DNA of 64,000 nt, taken from the IMG/VR virus record IMGVR_UViG_3300029793_000467, one strand, 5' to 3'. The number at the start of each line of letters is the position of its first letter. The stretch's first letter is position 1. Shown piece by piece: positions 10,994-23,183 of the stretch. Both the position numbers and the translations under genes were made by a program. Origin of the DNA: a virus. The notes beneath the pieces were generated by a model. That model did no database searches, was not told the DNA's origin, and worked only from the letters and a program-made list of their open reading frames with translations.

Positions 10994-11016
10994 GTAGAAA
11001 AACGCAACACACGAAC

Positions 11017-11472
11017 CTAAGCCAGCGTCCCGTTAAAAAAGAACTCCCTCTTCCCAACCCGATACAAACCCACATACGAACCGGACAGACGAAAACCAAA
11101 AAGACGGAAGAAACCCTCATACACCGGTAATAATTCCTCCGGCACTGTCACCAGAGGGAACCGTTCATCCAGCAATCCCAGTGAATATTCGACCAGTGCG
11201 GAACCGACCCCTCGATTTCGGAAAGCCTTGGAAACATACAAGGTGCAAATCTTCCGTTCAGACGGATTTCTCTTGAGAACGCAAAACCCCGTCAACTCAC
11301 CGTTTATGCGGGCTAAAAGAATCGCGCGGCCTTTCCCCAATGAGGGGAGAACCGTGCGGTCGAACCAAATATCGAAGCCGGGATAATACGTTCGGATTAT
11401 CCTCGGAATAGGAATAGAAACCGCAGTTTGAGCGTCCCGGACTAAGTCAATCCTTAAAGAACTCAAACACAT
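11017..11472 (-). CDS. GNAT family N-acetyltransferase
   Basis: Acetyl-CoA binding motif in VSKAFRNRGVGSALVEY (R-x-x-G-x-G/A). Confidence 0.65.
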   Translation of the reverse strand: MCLSSLRIDLVRDAQTAVSIPIPRIIRTYYPGFDIWFDRTVLPSLGKGRAILLARINGELTGFCVLKRNPSERKICTLYVSKAFRNRGVGSALVEYSLGLLDERFPLVTVPEELLPVYEGFFRLFGFRLSGSYVGLYRVGKREFFFNGTLA

Positions 11473-11692
11473 GGAAATCCGTCACGCACTTGACATTGAC
11501 ATGAGTCGTATTATCCGGCCAAACATACAAGACCGGCATGTAACCGGGCAGTTCCCGAACAACGAGATTACTGAAACCGTCCAAGTAGAGGGTTCCGGCC
11601 ATGGGTTTGCCGTTCCAGTTGAAAATTGCGGGCTTGCCTTCGAGTTCCGTCCAGTTGATTCCGTCTTGGTAGGGGAGTTCTTTTAAGGTCAT
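11447..11692 (-). CDS. hypothetical protein (81 aa)
   Basis: AAGGAAAAC RBS, with a degenerate promoter element upstream. Confidence 0.4.
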   Translation of the reverse strand: MTLKELPYQDGINWTELEGKPAIFNWNGKPMAGTLYLDGFSNLVVRELPGYMPVLYVWPDNTTHVNVKCVTDFHVFEFFKD

Positions 11693-11708
11693 CGGTTTTC
11701 CTTCTTTG

Positions 11709-11736
11709 GTGTGGACTATCTCACTCTAACACAACC
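11709..11736 (-). promoter_or_regulatory. conserved promoter element (degenerate)
   Basis: rc TGTGTTAGAGTGAGATAGTCCACAC. Lies directly next to the IS insertion. Confidence 0.3.
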
Positions 11737-11739
11737 GGA

Positions 11740-13380
11740 GTGGCGTGAAGAAGAAAAATCCCCTTCCCCACCGTTTTGCCGTGAGGGTGCCCCCGCCTTT
11801 AGGCGCGGGGAGGAATCACAGCTTTCTTTTTTCCATATTACGCGTAATGTGGTATTATTAGAAATATGAGCCAGAAAGTCGTGTTGGAGCGTGTGACGTT
11901 GGACGGTGCCAAACCGTTCATCGGTTATACCGGCCAGCATGACCCATGTTCCGAAAAGCTTTACGCGAATACCGGCAGTCAGGCGATGGAATGGCTTTGT
12001 GACGCTTGGCGTTACCGGTTCAACCAGTTAAGGTCGAACCGTTGCAAATACGGTAAGGACAAGACTCTCATCCCCATTGGCGGCACACCCGACACTCGTA
12101 GCGTCAGCCAGTCCCGAAGCGAATGTTCTTGGCTAACCGCAGTGCCTTCCCTTATCTTGGAATCCCCGACCAGAATCGAACGGGTCGAATGGTTCACCTC
12201 CGTGAAACGACGCAAGACCCTATTAAGCAAACGGTTGAAACCGGGGAGAATGCCCCGTTTCAAATCGTATAAGCGTGACGGGCAACGTTTCGTCTGCTGG
12301 TACAACGGGGGACGCAACGCCGTATACCGTCGAGTCAACCGCAACCACGGCATCATAACCATCACCGGACAGAACCCCAAAGGCATGTCATTGCCGGGCG
12401 AACCGTTACGCTACCGTATCCTCCTGCACGTGCGCGTCAGCCAGCCGATACGCGAATACACGGCCATCCAAGTGGATTGGACGAACCGTACCGTCGTGTT
12501 CAACAACATTCCAACGCCCATCAGTCATGAGCCGACCGGCAGGGCGGTCGGCATCGACCGTGGATGCGTGCATGCCGCCGCCGACTCCGACGGACGGTTC
12601 ATGGACCTGCCGAAAGACAGGTTGAAGGCCATCGACCGTGAAATCCGGAAGCGTCAGAAAAGCCAAGCCCGTAGGGTCAAGACAGCCGGATATTCCAGTG
12701 AGAAAGAATACGCGAATAGTGGCAGAACCAGCCGCGCATATTGGAAGACCCGGCTGGAAATCACAAAACTGCATTCGAAATCCGAACGTATATTGGATGA
12801 CGTGTACCAAAAATACACGACCCAACTCGTGTGTGACAATGATTTGATTGTGTTGGAGAACCTACGATTAGCGAACATGAGCCGACGCAACAAGCCTGTT
12901 CCCGACCCGTTGCATGAAGGCAGGTATCTTCACAATGGTCAGGTGGCGAAACGTGGACTCAACCGTAGCCTCCGACAGGCGAGCATGGGAAGACTGTCCT
13001 CCATGCTCGCATACAAGACCAAGCTTGCCGACGGCGTGGGCATGATACTCGTCAACCCGGCCTACACAAGCCAGACATGCAGTCAATGCGGGTATGTGGC
13101 GAAAGAAAACCGCGAGAGCCAAGCGGTGTTCATTTGCAAAAAATGCTCGTACAAGACGAACGCTGACGTGAACGCGGCGAAAAACATTCTCAAACGAGGA
13201 TTGGACACGCTCGCCGTCACGTCGGAAAACCTGTGGGGCGCGGACGGCACCCCGGTCGAACAGGGACGTAAGACCAACGGAAACGCTACACGCGAATCCG
13301 TGGCAGTCTCTTAGAAACCAGAACCTCTCCTACCGCAAAACGATAGGAGGAATCCCCCGGTTTAAACCGTGGGGAGGACG
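11740..13380 (+). mobile_element. IS200/IS605-family TnpB-only (IS1341-like) insertion sequence
   Basis: A single tnpB gene is flanked by subterminal hairpins (11789-11810 and 13354-13375). A GGAGGAATC word sits next to both hairpins. No TnpA gene is present. The insertion breaks the minus-strand gene array. Confidence 0.65.
11866..13314 (+). CDS. tnpB: TnpB (OrfB_IS605) RNA-guided nuclease-like transposon protein
   Basis: 482 aa. C-terminal RuvC-like region with a zinc finger (TSQTCSQCG...CKKC) and NADVNAAKNILKRG. Confidence 0.85.
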   Translation: MSQKVVLERVTLDGAKPFIGYTGQHDPCSEKLYANTGSQAMEWLCDAWRYRFNQLRSNRCKYGKDKTLIPIGGTPDTRSVSQSRSECSWLTAVPSLILESPTRIERVEWFTSVKRRKTLLSKRLKPGRMPRFKSYKRDGQRFVCWYNGGRNAVYRRVNRNHGIITITGQNPKGMSLPGEPLRYRILLHVRVSQPIREYTAIQVDWTNRTVVFNNIPTPISHEPTGRAVGIDRGCVHAAADSDGRFMDLPKDRLKAIDREIRKRQKSQARRVKTAGYSSEKEYANSGRTSRAYWKTRLEITKLHSKSERILDDVYQKYTTQLVCDNDLIVLENLRLANMSRRNKPVPDPLHEGRYLHNGQVAKRGLNRSLRQASMGRLSSMLAYKTKLADGVGMILVNPAYTSQTCSQCGYVAKENRESQAVFICKKCSYKTNADVNAAKNILKRGLDTLAVTSENLWGADGTPVEQGRKTNGNATRESVAVS

Positions 13381-13623
13381 TCAACATTCGTCCAACAGTT
13401 GCGTAGCGCTCATGTCGAGCTTCTTAAGGGTTTCGGTTGTAATGTCAGCGTATTCCAAGGATTCTTCATTCAAGTATGCGATTGTTCTTGGGGCTACCGC
13501 ATACTTGTCGGGGTTGGTGTCGAGTCTTTTCAGAAACGCCAGTACGGTCTCTTTGTCGTGCTCGTTCAGTTCAGGGTCGTTTTTGGCTGAGGTGGTCAGA
13601 TACTCATAGTAGCCGCTGTCCAT
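13381..13623 (-). CDS. hypothetical protein (80 aa)
   Basis: Acidic ORF. Confidence 0.4.
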   Translation of the reverse strand: MDSGYYEYLTTSAKNDPELNEHDKETVLAFLKRLDTNPDKYAVAPRTIAYLNEESLEYADITTETLKKLDMSATQLLDEC

Positions 13624-13837
13624 TTTTCTCCTTTTGGTCTAACGTTTTTTGACGTGGGGGGCTAGTCGTTGCTCCAGTCGGTATTGCGTATGCCGAATTC
13701 GTTTCGTTTCTTGGATTGCGGGTTCCAAGCGCTACCGGCGTCCCATCCGTTATGAGTGGAACGGTTGTTCTTGTGAGTGTTGTTTTTATTGGGACTGTTG
13801 GTTGCTACCCAGTCGTGGTTACTCATTCGTGGACCTT

Positions 13838-14092
13838 TCAGGAGAACACTTTCACGGACTGGAATTCTTCGCCCATTTCGTTGCCGGATTCGCATTGGTT
13901 GACAATAACCCATGGTTTGACGCCGGGGAGGTGGAGGCTATCGATTCTCACGTACATGTCGGGTTGTGCCGTGCGATATTCCAGTATGCCTTCGATGGTC
14001 TCGCCGGTTTTGGTGACTGCGATGCACTTGTGGCCTTCCAAGTTTTGGGGGAGGGTGTTGTGCCAGTTGATTTCTGTGGTGGTGTTGCTCAT
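13838..14092 (-). CDS. hypothetical protein (84 aa)
   Basis: AAGGAG RBS. Promoter element at 14125-14150. Confidence 0.45.
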   Translation of the reverse strand: MSNTTTEINWHNTLPQNLEGHKCIAVTKTGETIEGILEYRTAQPDMYVRIDSLHLPGVKPWVIVNQCESGNEMGEEFQSVKVFS

Positions 14093-14124
14093 TTTTCTCC
14101 TTAGTAGGATACTAACTTCTTTAC

Positions 14125-14150
14125 TGTGTGAACAATTCCAGTATATATGA
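14125..14150 (-). promoter_or_regulatory. conserved promoter element
   Basis: rc TATATACTGGAATTGTTCACACAG. Confidence 0.55.
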
Positions 14151-14195
14151 TATTAGCGCAAAACACAATCCGATAGAACAATAAGGAGGCATAGA

Positions 14196-14214
14196 AACGG
14201 CAGTCTTCCAATCC
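14196..14214 (-). repeat. second conserved element, partial copy (ACGGCAGTCTTCCAAT core)
   Basis: Core 16-mer only. Confidence 0.35.
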
Positions 14215-14220
14215 ACTTTC

Positions 14221-14595
14221 TCAATAGCAGTTATCACACCAGCCGGTATCGCCGCAAAGGTTCTCGTTCTCCTCGCTGAGAAGGCAACCGCAACCGCTGC
14301 AATACATGTTGGCTGGATTGTCGGACGAAGCGAAAGAACCTTCCCTGACAATGTTTCCAGTCAAGTCGGTGATGGTGTAGATTGCCCGAGTGTCGGCTTC
14401 CGGTGCGGGATAGCCGGACATGCCTAGAATCCTGTTGTACACGTTCGTCAGTAGAGTGCGAACGTTTCCGGCCTGACGAGTCCCATTTAGAATGGGATTC
14501 GTCAAATGGTCGAAGAATCCTACCGTCGTATCCCAAGAATGCTGGCCTTCGTGGATTTCAATTTCCAGCTTTTCCTTGCCGTCGGTGAATCGCAT
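14221..14595 (-). CDS. hypothetical protein, C-terminal Cys-rich (CSGCGC..C..C..C)
   Basis: 124-aa ORF. Confidence 0.45.
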   Translation of the reverse strand: MRFTDGKEKLEIEIHEGQHSWDTTVGFFDHLTNPILNGTRQAGNVRTLLTNVYNRILGMSGYPAPEADTRAIYTITDLTGNIVREGSFASSDNPANMYCSGCGCLLSEENENLCGDTGWCDNCY

Positions 14596-16340: not shown

Positions 16341-16366
16341 TGTGTGAACAATTCCAGTATAGCATA
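16341..16366 (-). promoter_or_regulatory. conserved promoter element
   Basis: rc TGCTATACTGGAATTGTTCACACA. Confidence 0.55.
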
Positions 16367-17193: not shown

Positions 17194-17217
17194 GTGTGAA
17201 CAATTCCAGTATACCAC
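17194..17217 (-). promoter_or_regulatory. conserved promoter element
   Basis: rc TGGTATACTGGAATTGTTCACACA. Confidence 0.55.
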
Positions 17218-18205: not shown

Positions 18206-18230
18206 TGTGTGAACAGTTCCAGTATAGTAC
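18206..18230 (-). promoter_or_regulatory. conserved promoter element
   Basis: rc TACTATACTGGAACTGTTCACACA. Confidence 0.55.
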
Positions 18231-18513
18231 AGAATAGAGAAATGCTCAACCCCGAACCCATTGACACTCCCGTGGTTTCAACCACGGGAGTGTCAAGTGA
18301 GCAACGGATACAAGTACGGCCCCGCACGGCATCTGGAGTATTTGAGCGCGCTGTTGCACTCCTTCAACCGTTCTATAGATGTCATTGCCGCCGACACGCA
18401 TCGGAAGGTGTGCGATGAGGAGAATCGTAAGTATGACCGTTTGGAGGATGAGCGGGAGAGGGCTTGGAACGCGGCTCGCTGACGTGGGGTGAGCATCCTT
18501 TTACGTCTACCTA

Positions 18514-18539
18514 TGTTATACTGGAATGGTTCACATAAG
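18514..18539 (+). promoter_or_regulatory. conserved promoter element in opposite (plus) orientation, no obvious downstream gene
   Basis: TGTTATACTGGAATGGTTCACATAAG. Points into the antisense strand of the Abi remnant. Confidence 0.45.
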
Positions 18540-18623
18540 TAGATTTGAACAGAGTCAGTTGGTCGTTGAATCCCAAGAGTTCCCAGAGGTTCCATAGGGC
18601 AAAATCGCCTTGCAGGCCGGTTT

Positions 18624-18773
18624 TCATGTCGTCGGTGTAGGGATTGTCGTGCAGAAGAAGTACGAGTTGTTCGAGAGGAACCTTCGGGCTTTCTCTTCGT
18701 CCATCAGGTCGAAGGTGACGCCATGCGAGACGAGGGTGTTTATCTGCTCATCCAACGTCGCTCGTTGCTTCAT
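18624..18773 (-). pseudogene. Abi_2 (AbiD/AbiF-like) abortive-infection gene N-terminal remnant
   Basis: The minus-strand ORF MKQRATLDEQINTLVSHGVTFDLMDEEKARRFLSNNSYFF... matches the characteristic Abi_2 N-terminus, then stops after 49 codons. The continuation is frame-shifted and unrecognisable. Confidence 0.4.
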
Positions 18774-18786
18774 CTTCACCTCTCAG

Positions 18787-18822
18787 AATAAAAAAACGGC
18801 GGCCGATGAATTCGACCGCCGT
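18787..18822 (-). terminator. rho-independent terminator (minus strand)
   Basis: Hairpin AACGGCGG..CCGCCGTT followed on the minus strand by a T8 run. Confidence 0.5.
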
Positions 18823-19185
18823 TCCGAGACGCCTCGGCGAACCAAGGCTTCTCTACGTTGTATGCCATACAATAGCCGCAATCTCCGGACTTTTCAATGA
18901 TAATCAGCCGTGCACCCAAGTCTTTCCGTTGGTTCTACGGCGTGTCGCTGGCATGCGGCGCGATGTGCCTCATCCTCGCCATCGGCGGACGGACCATCGC
19001 CGCCGGGGTCTTCGGAGCCGCCGCCGGGGTCTTCGGCTACTGCTGGCCTGTCAGACGGTGCGGCTTGTCTGTTATCGGGAAACTGACGCATTGGCCTCCA
19101 TGGTGATAGCGGGGTTTGCCATCCTCGTCTGGCTAGTGGTTCTCGCACGGCGGAATGGAGATTTTTGACGGTTCCAACAAACTAA

Positions 19186-19217
19186 GCTATAGTGGAACTG
19201 TTCACACAAATAAAAGG
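19186..19217 (+). promoter_or_regulatory. conserved promoter element with TTGACG -35
   Basis: TTGACG, a 17-nt spacer, then TATAGTGGAACTGTTCACACA. Confidence 0.55.
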
Positions 19218-19225
19218 GGAGAACG

Positions 19226-19489
19226 ATGACCGTAAACGAACTCATCGAACAATTAAAAAACCTACCCGAGGAAGTACGCGAACGCCCCATCATGGACGGC
19301 AATCCGAACGATGAATACTGGTTGGCCGACCTCCGCGCGATTTCAGTCGCCAAGGTCGTTGTATCCGGCGATGGCGCTTGTAACATGTACGACCCGGTAC
19401 TTTCCGACGAGGAAAACATCGAAGAACTGGAAAACAGATACGACATGTCAATGCATGTCGAACATCGGGCATTGGCGTTCTTCAATTGA
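19226..19489 (+). CDS. hypothetical protein (87 aa)
   Basis: A plus-orientated promoter element lies at 19186-19217, with a TTGACG -35 positioned 17 nt upstream. GGGGAG RBS. Confidence 0.5.
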   Translation: MTVNELIEQLKNLPEEVRERPIMDGNPNDEYWLADLRAISVAKVVVSGDGACNMYDPVLSDEENIEELENRYDMSMHVEHRALAFFN

Positions 19490-19505
19490 GATAGGGGTCG
19501 TACAA

Positions 19506-19976
19506 ATGGACGCGAACACTCCCATTAACATTCCCATCCGTCTTGAACAGTGGATACATGACAACTACATGGAAGTCGAAACCATTATCATCGATGCCCG
19601 GACAATCCTAGACGCAACCGATTTCGACAATCTTCCCGAATGGGAGGATTGGGGCGCGGACTTCATCGCGGAGGACGCTCAAAGAATTGGACTGCTGAAA
19701 ATGTGGTCTGGGCCGTTCACAGTCGAACTATTCAACTGTGACGAGTATCCCGACTATCTCGAATGGCGCAAAACTCATAAGACCGTCGAAGGTGCCGCAG
19801 AACACATTCTCGACTTGAGCAAGAAGGAACTACTGTGGCGAATCGAAGAAACCAAGAAGCAACTAGACAAGTATGTTAGCCAAATGACGCTGTTAAATGG
19901 AGGATTTGTTGACGCCGACAGGAGGGAAGACAAACATGGCCGAGGAATACTGGAAACGTCTTTGCCGCTCGTTTAA
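19506..19976 (+). CDS. hypothetical protein (156 aa)
   Basis: Start at MDANTP. Follows the previous gene by 17 nt. Confidence 0.45.
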   Translation: MDANTPINIPIRLEQWIHDNYMEVETIIIDARTILDATDFDNLPEWEDWGADFIAEDAQRIGLLKMWSGPFTVELFNCDEYPDYLEWRKTHKTVEGAAEHILDLSKKELLWRIEETKKQLDKYVSQMTLLNGGFVDADRREDKHGRGILETSLPLV

Positions 19977-20353
19977 CAAGAAATACGTTCATCAACCAAA
20001 CGCCCGAACCCATCAAACGGAACCAACGAATACACCAACCAGCCAACAAGCGCCAGCAATGCAAGCGCCGCAATCGCATACACCAGCGTACCCACGAACA
20101 AGCCAGCCAAAAACACGTTCATCTGCCGTTTGCGTTGCTCCAGCAGCTCATACCATTCGCTTTCGCACCGGTCGAATGCGTCAGCATCCATGCCGGTGCC
20201 TCCATGGGCTTGAAGCCAATCGCGTACGGTCGGCATGGGAGGTAGCGGGTCGGATATGCAAGCGTGCGGTACAAGCGCGGTTTTAAGCCCTTGCCAAACG
20301 CCGTTGAAAAAGAACGCGGGAAAACGTGCGGCCTTCACCGTGCTGGGTATCAT
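19973..20353 (-). CDS. membrane protein (C-terminal TM)
   Basis: Start at MIPSTV. ATGA overlap with the stop of 20350..21069. Confidence 0.4.
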   Translation of the reverse strand: MIPSTVKAARFPAFFFNGVWQGLKTALVPHACISDPLPPMPTVRDWLQAHGGTGMDADAFDRCESEWYELLEQRKRQMNVFLAGLFVGTLVYAIAALALLALVGWLVYSLVPFDGFGRLVDERISC

Positions 20354-22326: not shown

Positions 22327-22351
22327 TGTGTGAACAATTCCAGTATATATG
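22327..22351 (-). promoter_or_regulatory. conserved promoter element with TTGACG -35
   Basis: rc TTGACG, a 16-nt spacer, then TATACTGGAATTGTTCACACA. Confidence 0.6.
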
Positions 22352-23158: not shown

Positions 23159-23183
23159 TTGTGTGAACAATTCCAGTATAACG
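23159..23183 (-). promoter_or_regulatory. conserved promoter element with TTGATG -35
   Basis: rc TTGATG, a 16-nt spacer, then TTATACTGGAATTGTTCACACA. Confidence 0.6.

Follow-up and report, generated by a model that had tools for sequence, protein, structure and literature searches.

A probable tnpB-only insertion sequence of IS608-like layout, with a predicted omega RNA and a CCAC insertion motif, on a relative of Bifidobacterium megaplasmids

What kind of mobile element has placed a tnpB gene into a replicon related to Bifidobacterium megaplasmids, where exactly does it end, and does it carry the guide RNA of an RNA-guided nuclease? We addressed these questions for the window, the whole 64-kb stretch of IMG/VR virus record IMGVR_UViG_3300029793_000467; coordinates are positions in this window, and L-numbers denote comparison loci or contigs (features are collected in Table 1). 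An interpretation of the letters alone (the sequence-only reading) had proposed a TnpB-only IS605-family element with an omega RNA at its 3' end. The protein profiles, the ends and the predicted fold agreed on such an element of the IS200/IS605 family. With a probability of roughly 0.88, the locus is a non-autonomous insertion sequence (IS), IS1341-like in having tnpB without tnpA, which specifies an omega RNA and would be mobilized in trans. It is a well-preserved, recently mobile example of a well-known kind of element, and new here is the insertion motif of this kind, CCAC.

We compared the element with its other copies and with an uninterrupted version of the locus and found that it spans 11772-13384 (1613 bp). 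These comparisons of copies and flanks also assigned the CCAC at its left border to the target, and the span of 11740-13380 proposed earlier was wrong. Megablast of 11000-14500 against PLSDB gave matches confined to ~11767-13390, in four Bifidobacterium longum megaplasmids (184-198 kb), and the genes flanking the element were different in each of the four. A scan of genome contigs yielded just two loci while a metagenome scan supplied 80. When copies were aligned side by side, the similarity began at CCAC-CGTTTTGC and stopped after ...GGGGAGGACGTCAA. Close copies (at least 87% amino-acid (aa) identity) differed in their surroundings, with 22 distinct flanks on the left and 23 on the right, and CCAC terminated 17 of the 22 left flanks, 12 of those 17 with TCCAC. 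The exceptions were one site with CCAT, two copies with small indels just past a CCAC, and one copy that adjoined the right end of another family member. The copy in L016 was 100% identical over 1617 nucleotides (nt; 11768-13384) in an unrelated context, and the exact TnpB protein of the window occurred at the same site on at least 20 human-gut metagenome contigs (up to 212 kb). One unit was thus found at several unrelated sites, in the B. longum megaplasmids and on many metagenome contigs. An alternative border, with a 5-nt target CCACY and the element starting at 11773, was dropped because the right flank retains its C after GTCAA.

An uninterrupted homologue, which the sequence-only reading had suggested looking for, was present in L027 and its siblings. 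Neither of the two outcomes named beforehand as counting against that reading was therefore obtained, since the ends, too, agreed with the LE/RE layout of an IS605-family element, IS608. The ten uninterrupted loci shown have the gene order 54aa-109aa-71aa-81aa without tnpB, and the order in the window is 54aa-80aa-(tnpB)-81aa. In BLASTP, the 80-aa open reading frame (ORF) shared 77 of 80 residues with the N-terminal part of the 109-aa L027 protein, and its TGA stop is supplied by the element, whose terminal TCA reads as TGA on the other strand. By blastn, window 14200-13385 corresponded to L027 1733-2546 (97.7%) and window 11735-11300 to L027 2958-3393 (99.3%); the break therefore put the right junction exactly between 13384 and 13385, where L027 reads ...TTCCCAC/CATTCG and nothing is duplicated. 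The description of the element as lying between two promoter units did not hold, since its right end truncates the 109-aa gene to 80 aa and, on the left, 411 bp of the uninterrupted locus, comprising the rest of that gene and the whole 71-aa gene, have been replaced. In the index of the collection, the intact neighbouring 81-aa gene occurred in 849 blocks and the truncated 80-aa ORF, the marker of the insertion, in 79; tnpB adjoined the 80-aa ORF in every locus fetched by its exact sequence (10 places shown, 24 contigs read).

The ends reproduced the layout of IS608, an element of Helicobacter pylori that moves by single-strand 'peel and paste' through a Y1 TnpA. In IS608 the left cleavage site (CL), TTAC, precedes the foot of the left imperfect palindrome by 19 nt, the right cleavage site (CR), TCAA, lies 10 nt 3' of the right hairpin, and both are read by tetranucleotides located 5' of the feet, AAAG on the left (GL) and GAAT on the right (GR) (PMC3201880, PMC5934647). 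The window element likewise has a tetranucleotide target and subterminal imperfect palindromes in the same orientation, with TCAA at 10 nt and GAAT as GR. Its CL and left hairpin foot are 18 nt apart, the final four being GGTG, which is complementary to the target as in IS608, and its right junction, compared with the uninterrupted locus, had no target duplication either. Each hairpin has a single bulged base, on the 3' arm in both; the end modules form a 32-nt direct repeat with 72% identity, and there are no terminal inverted repeats. The hairpins had been placed at 11789-11810 and 13354-13375, which was accurate to within 1 nt, and the word noted beside each of them, GGAGGAATC, was indeed found at just two places in the 64 kb, on the 3' side of the left hairpin (11809-11817) and on the 5' side of the right one (13346-13354); 0.6 occurrences were expected, and at least two were seen in 11 of 100 shuffles. 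As single DNA folds the hairpins were unexceptional (z of -0.8 and -1.0), and we accept them because they are conserved with compensatory changes in relatives rather than because of their z values. The terminal GGAGGA(C/A)GTCAA was kept in all relatives down to 50% aa identity, with sequences diverging immediately past it; the left ends of distant subfamilies were located in a few cases by hairpin similarity, with ambiguous borders. Unlike IS608, the window element lacks tnpA, uses CCAC instead of TTAC and GGTG instead of AAAG, resides in an actinobacterial megaplasmid and encodes a larger (482 aa), distantly related TnpB.

These ends also bear on whether the element could belong to the IS607 family or another group and be moved by a serine recombinase or a DDE transposase. 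Several transposase types accompany TnpBs (PMC10691335), IS607 relatives had been named alongside IS1341 for comparison, and the protein matched the NCBIfam IS607_TnpB model at 77.8 bits, below the cut-off of 350. On the other hand, IS200_TnpB scored higher (104 bits), the direct-orientation bulged hairpins, GAAT/TCAA, the 10- and 18-nt spacings and the lack of terminal inverted repeats are hallmarks of IS608, and no target duplication was seen at the right junction, the sole comparable one, the left junction of this copy being rearranged. Autonomous relatives beside copies encode a Y1 TnpA, and no recombinase was called next to any copy in the loci fetched. We therefore regard an IS607-type origin as highly improbable, with the IS1341-like half of the earlier comparison standing and the IS607 half giving way to ends of the IS608/Y1-transposase type.

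The product of tnpB scored 160.8 bits with NCBIfam NF040570 (RNA-guided endonuclease TnpB family; cut-off 100), 72.4 with Pfam Cas12f1-like_TNB (PF07282; cut-off 26.3) and 50.8 with OrfB_IS605 (PF01385; cut-off 30.5). In an alignment of 14 TnpB sequences (the window and 13 relatives, 50-89% identity), the RuvC triad D231, E331 and D434 and the zinc-finger cysteines C405, C408, C424 and C427 were invariant. A sequence search of the PDB reached mostly the C-terminal RuvC and zinc-finger part, and the full length was covered by a fold search. The AlphaFold2 model had a mean predicted local distance difference test score (pLDDT) of 79.7 with disorder limited to residues 453-482, and its top Foldseek match was the ISDra2 TnpB-omegaRNA-DNA complex (8h1j_A; E 2.2e-15, template modelling (TM) score of 0.64 on the target), followed by ISFba1 TnpB and Cas12f. 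Like ISDra2 TnpB of Deinococcus radiodurans (8h1j, 8exa, 8bf8), which uses the transposon target site as its transposon-associated motif (TAM), the protein has a RuvC-type fold, at a sequence identity of only ~17-18%. By this analogy, RNA-guided, TAM-dependent cleavage by the protein is predicted. The structural matches to Cas12f, together with sub-threshold matches to the NCBIfam C2c8 and Cas12f2 profiles, could be taken to indicate a miniature type V CRISPR effector. We give this next to no credence: TnpB was the best structural match, no CRISPR or other direct-repeat array was found at 6-20 kb of the window, and the gene lies between transposon ends that occupy many sites.

A promoter-like site, TTTCCA-17-TATTAT, is located at 11830-11858 and ends 7 nt ahead of the ATG of tnpB, with no Shine-Dalgarno sequence, and this position and absence suggest that the mRNA may be leaderless. 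Just upstream of the -10 box we noted a palindrome, CCATATTACGCGTAATGTGG (11833-11852), whose arms (CCAyATTA / AATGTGG) were conserved in every subfamily of close copies. It may be an operator, or a second small left-end hairpin as known from IS608.

In ISDra2, the omega RNA (right-end-derived RNA, reRNA) takes ~150 nt from the tnpB 3' end and the right end (RE), followed by ~16 nt of flank as the guide (PMC8612924), and the window element appears to have the same arrangement, its RNA being of unrelated sequence. A search of the whole window with Rfam gave no match at the gathering threshold, and 11600-13600 contained only chance-level ones (E>2 in a search at E<=10). Because no Rfam omega RNA family matched, we built a covariance model, R1 (153 positions, 40 pairs), from the 3' regions of 18 elements drawn from the 80 metagenome loci. 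Only distant relatives were used, with TnpB 50-56% and DNA 55-61% identical to those of the window. R1 found 13232-13384 on the plus strand at full length (84.8 bits, E 2.4e-22), close to the guess of 13250-13380 in the sequence-only reading. RNAalifold predicted 30 pairs from the 18 sequences, compensatory changes occurring in 19, and single-sequence folds of 25 representatives had one common P1-P7 architecture. Plain MAFFT followed by RNAalifold missed P2-P4 because of register shifts near indels, and these helices were settled by the single folds and by re-alignment with the covariance model. When 54 distinct sequences were aligned to R1, and thus in an alignment fitted to the model itself, 91.7% of cells were paired, compared to 39-46% with the partners slid by 1-3 columns, and 33 of 40 pairs had changes on both sides; none of 500 shuffles reached the observed values. 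The single fold of the window scaffold had a z of -2.6. The first 83 nt of the scaffold overlap the end of the tnpB ORF, and the protein tail encoded over P1-P3 showed little conservation and predicted disorder, which is what one would expect if the constraint were on the RNA. The region 13232-13384 thus encodes a conserved, covarying structured RNA; that it is transcribed and bound by TnpB is predicted. We also noted that the GAC of the AAGAC loop could pair over a long range with the GUC of the 3' tail (alignment pairs 60-62/173-175), which was neither supported nor rejected since these bases are almost invariant.

The same 153 nt could instead be only a DNA-level right end for the transposase, perhaps with a terminator, and no guide scaffold at all. 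P7 is the transposase hairpin, and the homologous left hairpin makes no omega RNA; a terminator-like site on the minus strand overlaps 13346-13358, and the lack of an Rfam match points the same way. Set against this, six more covarying helices (P1-P6) reach ~120 nt upstream into the ORF, while right-end substrates of just 45-56 nt (RE45, RE56) sufficed for complex formation in IS608 (PMC3201880). The size and position of the region fit the reRNA of ISDra2, and the disorder and poor conservation of the protein tail over P1-P3 also argue for an RNA. We consider a purely DNA-level role very unlikely.

The predicted guide would be copied from the right flank, and its target could be read in the uninterrupted siblings: in 10 out of 10 such loci examined, CCCAC was followed by a 20/20 match to the guide. 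The window contained no other TAM-flanked near-match. The predicted TAM is CCAC, one nt shorter than TTGAT of ISDra2, and TnpB should spare the occupied site, where the guide match is preceded by GTCAA in place of CCAC.

That all examined uninterrupted siblings carry a perfect TAM and target raises the question of whether the locus is still a transposon or has become a domesticated, immobile TnpB fixed in the megaplasmid and serving it, either as a weapon or exclusion system against siblings or as a regulator. Such a role would fit with the lack of a TnpA in the window and with the same insertion and flanks on at least 20 metagenome contigs. Moreover, TnpB is reported to act as a primitive anti-self system in conjugative plasmids (bioRxiv 10.1101/2025.02.20.638934), and some B. 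longum TnpB clades show low mobility (PMC10691335). However, an identical copy occurred in another context (L016), close relatives occupied at least 22 insertion sites, and both ends retain every feature needed by a Y1 transposase. The intact catalytic residues do not suit a nuclease-dead regulator of the TldR type, and plasmid competition follows from the normal mechanism with no need for domestication. We judge domestication to be unlikely and favor a mobile element that depends on a transposase encoded elsewhere.

As had been proposed, the element is non-autonomous: tblastn with two related TnpAs (E<=1) found no TnpA homologue in the element or in the 64-kb window. The same holds for a second TnpB in the window (tblastn, E<=1). 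The absence of TnpA is the definition of the TnpB-only (IS1341-like) architecture and thus does not exclude the element from the IS200/IS605 family; ISDra2, in contrast, is autonomous through its tnpA. Elements of the IS1341 type are similar in having a single tnpB between IS605-type ends at many sites, and in having related autonomous elements with near-identical hairpins, here in the same plasmid family. In L002 (NZ_CP065398.1), an autonomous IS605 (1050-2914) with tnpA (WP_212106186.1) and a split tnpB lies just upstream of a copy of the window-type element. Its left side reads TTAC, then 17 nt ending in AAAG (GL), then a hairpin, and its right end is GAAT followed by CCCCCGGCTTCAGCCGTGGGG and AGTGTCAA. 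The L003 copy has exactly this right hairpin, CCCCCGGCTTCAGCCGTGGGG, at its own right end, and the right hairpin of the L002 copy deviates from it by one base. AAAG is thus paired with TTAC in this element, versus GGTG with CCAC in the window element; therefore, within this group the guide tetranucleotide changes together with the target, as expected from the IS608 rule. A Y1_Tnp element whose hairpin resembles the left one of the window element is also present in L030, a variant of the window's own replicon. A trans-acting Y1 transposase in the same plasmid family is therefore a plausible candidate for mobilization. As to the L002 loci themselves, the autonomous element has inserted behind the final TTAC in a set of four plasmid iterons (AAGTGATATTAC), and the neighbouring window-type copy has lost its left hairpin and is probably immobile.

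Following the IS608 and ISDra2 paradigms, we propose that a Y1 (HUH) TnpA supplied in trans would bind the two bulged top-strand hairpins and cleave on the left after CCAC, recognized via the GGTG beside the left hairpin, and on the right after TCAA, recognized via GAAT. The element would then travel in the form of a single-stranded circle and reach another CCAC, with no duplication of the target. tnpB would be transcribed from the left-end promoter, probably as a leaderless mRNA, and the 3' part of a transcript running into the flank would become the omega RNA, with the last 16-20 nt (CATTCGTCCAACAGTT...) as the guide. TnpB with this RNA could cut DNA carrying CCAC and the guide sequence, both at the empty donor joint and in sibling megaplasmids that lack the insertion, and repair from an occupied copy would restore or spread the element (retention, or gene drive on plasmids). 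Such a role in retention or plasmid gene drive has already been proposed and tested for other TnpBs (PMC8612924; bioRxiv 10.1101/2025.02.20.638934). The plasmid study likewise concerns a TnpB-bearing IS on a large plasmid; it differs in being experimental and in using other hosts, while the relation described here is known from sequences alone.

The left flank called for a separate explanation. The stretch 11736-11771 had no high-identity match to the uninterrupted locus and was unlike the flanks of other copies. By eye, GAAGAAGAAAAATCCCCTTCCCCAC resembles GAAGGCGAAAAACAGCCTCCCTAC, and the stretch looks like a diverged version of the DNA beside the promoter of the 81-aa gene, which follows the left junction in L027. 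It borders the ~0.4-kb loss on one side. The flanks of this copy come from two CCAC-type sites ~0.4 kb apart and not from a simple filled site. A second rearrangement was seen in L007 (4519/4520), which has the same left flank and the same element as the window through 13384 and is then joined to window 14217. Adjacent to the right end, 832 bp are missing from this contig, and the sole plus-strand CCAC in that stretch (14213-14216) directly precedes the junction. One common left flank is thus combined with two right-end junctions, 13384/13385 in the window and 13384/14217 in L007. Several other loci join the left flank of one site to the right flank of another (L055/L002/L066/L069; L056/L082/L083). 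The likeliest account of the ~0.4-kb loss is a TAM-to-TAM event. Recombination between two copies at different CCAC sites and transposase-mediated adjacent deletion fit the deletions alike. We know of no description of a TAM-directed adjacent deletion by an IS200/IS605 element.

Several observations weigh against a mobile, trans-mobilized element with a functional omega RNA. No TnpA lies within the 64-kb window and none is tied to this copy of the replicon. Judged by the right flank, a simple insertion should have a different left flank, and for this copy we saw no plain empty site in which left flank, CCAC and right flank follow one another; one family of sites has CCAT in place of CCAC. No Rfam family fits the RNA, its assignment rests on a model built in this analysis, the pair counts (33/40, 91.7%) come from an alignment fitted to that model, and the covariation in P7 could be due to TnpA requiring a DNA hairpin there, and not to an RNA. 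Expression of the omega RNA, its 5' end and the length of its guide are predictions, and the TAM was read from insertion sites.

We also considered a bolder proposal, that the element is an active agent of competition and remodelling among gut Bifidobacterium megaplasmids, and that its end chemistry also produces right-end deletions that stop exactly at the next CCAC. We put this forward tentatively and would sooner doubt than accept it. If it is true, the omega RNA, aimed at the intact allele of the examined siblings, would convert them, as a natural plasmid gene drive, or exclude them. The 79 versus 849 index blocks are suggestive population data, and the locus offers a natural test of the recently proposed TnpB plasmid gene drive. 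Every part known from IS608 and ISDra2 can be read here: the target, guide tetranucleotides, hairpins, scaffold, guide and the empty target in siblings. A literature search found no description of this TnpB subfamily of Bifidobacterium megaplasmids and chromosomes, of its TAM or of its RNA. With a short predicted TAM and a 153-nt scaffold, the compact nuclease is native to Bifidobacterium replicons and could serve as a reasonable basis for developing genome editing in this genus, which is difficult to manipulate. As regards annotation, the insertion accounts for one truncated and one missing gene in this megaplasmid lineage.

Table 1. Coordinates of the element, its predicted RNA and its neighbours in the window
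Feature	Position	Strand	Description
81-aa gene	11447-11692	-	Neighbour left of the element
Promoter/operator core of the 81-aa gene	11709-11735	-	Outside the element; 14/20 match to the unit GTGTGARCARTTCCARTATA
Left-flank DNA	11736-11767	+	36 nt including CCAC (11736-11771); blastn break at 11735/11736
CCAC	11768-11771	+	Target and left cleavage site (CL), predicted TAM; flanking DNA, outside the element
Left end (LE)	11772-11865	+	Starts CGTTTTGCC; similarity to other copies begins here
GL GGTG	11786-11789	+	5' of the left hairpin; complementary to CCAC
Left imperfect palindrome (IPL)	11790-11810	+	CCCCCGCC-TTTA-GGCGCGGGG, 8 bp, C11806 bulged
tnpB	11866-13314	+	482 aa; RNA-guided endonuclease by profile, residues and predicted fold
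Omega RNA (reRNA) scaffold, predicted	13232-13384	+	153 nt; full-length match of the covariance model
P1	13235-13253	+	Hairpin, loop GGACG
P2-P5	13254-13321	+	Long bulged hairpin, conserved AAGAC internal loop
P6	~13326-13349	+	After single-stranded GAACCUC, before GGAAUC
P7	13354-13374	+	Right-end hairpin; followed by the tail AGGACGUCAA
Right-end (RE) core	13350-13384	+	GR GAAT, IPR, CR TCAA
GR GAAT	13350-13353	+	5' of the right hairpin
Right imperfect palindrome (IPR, = P7)	13354-13374	+	CCCCCGG-TTTAAA-CCGTGGGG, 7 bp, T13370 bulged
CR TCAA	13381-13384	+	10 nt 3' of the right hairpin; last bases of the element
80-aa ORF	13381-13623	-	Codons 1-79 of the hypothetical 109-aa gene that the insertion truncates
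Predicted guide segment	13385-13400/13404	+	CATTCGTCCAACAGTTGCGT; first 16-20 nt of the right flank, by analogy with ISDra2

The replicon is an uncatalogued relative of the pMP7017-type Bifidobacterium megaplasmids and not one of them. Megablast of the window against the phage collection gave no match, and the only match in the plasmid collection outside the element was a dnaB segment at 76%. A promoter/operator unit, GTGTGARCARTTCCARTATA, had 16 matches in the window (1150-62565), with 0 expected, for example at 14126-14145, 16342-16361, 17194-17213, 18207-18226, 22328-22347 and 23161-23180. Read along the gene strand, the unit is TATACTGGAACTGTTCACAC, which includes the palindrome GAACnGTTC. 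The regulon of pMP7017 has a 34-bp motif over the -10 box (PMC10832533), which the unit resembles in sequence. The promoter beside the left flank is a degenerate copy of this unit, as had been stated, and the insertion had been suggested as the cause of its divergence. This second part failed, because the promoter was 26/27 identical in the uninterrupted L027 and so has the same form in loci without the element; the sequences differed only farther upstream than about -7, counted from the -10 box. The degenerate promoter is a natural variant of the regulon motif described for pMP7017.

Among the other copies, L053 (1395-1420) has a left end that directly abuts the right end of another family member (…GGAGGAAGTCAA) with no CCAC between them, which is a tandem or nested arrangement. 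In L004 (3002-3054; NZ_CP084013.1, ~134932-134984), a 53-nt relic occupies the exact site of the full element in CP146883 (L003). It consists of CCAT, the left end through its hairpin, AGGA and then CGTCAA, and represents either the product of a deletion across the direct end repeats or a miniature element. At a second insertion site, with a 96%-identical copy (L017-L026), a called 94-aa gene on the minus strand ends 4 nt inside the 3' end of tnpB, so that the sequence encoding its C-terminus extends across both the omega RNA region and the right end of the element.

Elsewhere in the window, an intergenic perfect palindrome of 15+6+15 nt, TTGACACTCCCGTGGTTTCAACCACGGGAGTGTCAA, is located at 18261-18296 (plus strand) beside a promoter unit. 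The 22-nt core matches exactly the right-end hairpin that a distant TnpB element has in L087, the tail GGGAGTGTCAA equals the right end of the autonomous IS605 of L002, and R1 scored the palindrome at 17.2 bits (E 0.002). The palindrome may be what remains of the end of another IS605-family member, or it may be a terminator. The claim that tnpB is the only plus-strand gene in the left array was probably too strong. Plus-strand ORFs at 18806-19168 and 19311-19976, which had no Pfam matches, lie near promoter units in reversed orientation (18517-18536 and 19188-19207), and the AT skew is positive at 19-20 kb. This suggests a short block of plus-strand genes at 18500-20000 inside the mostly minus-strand left half.

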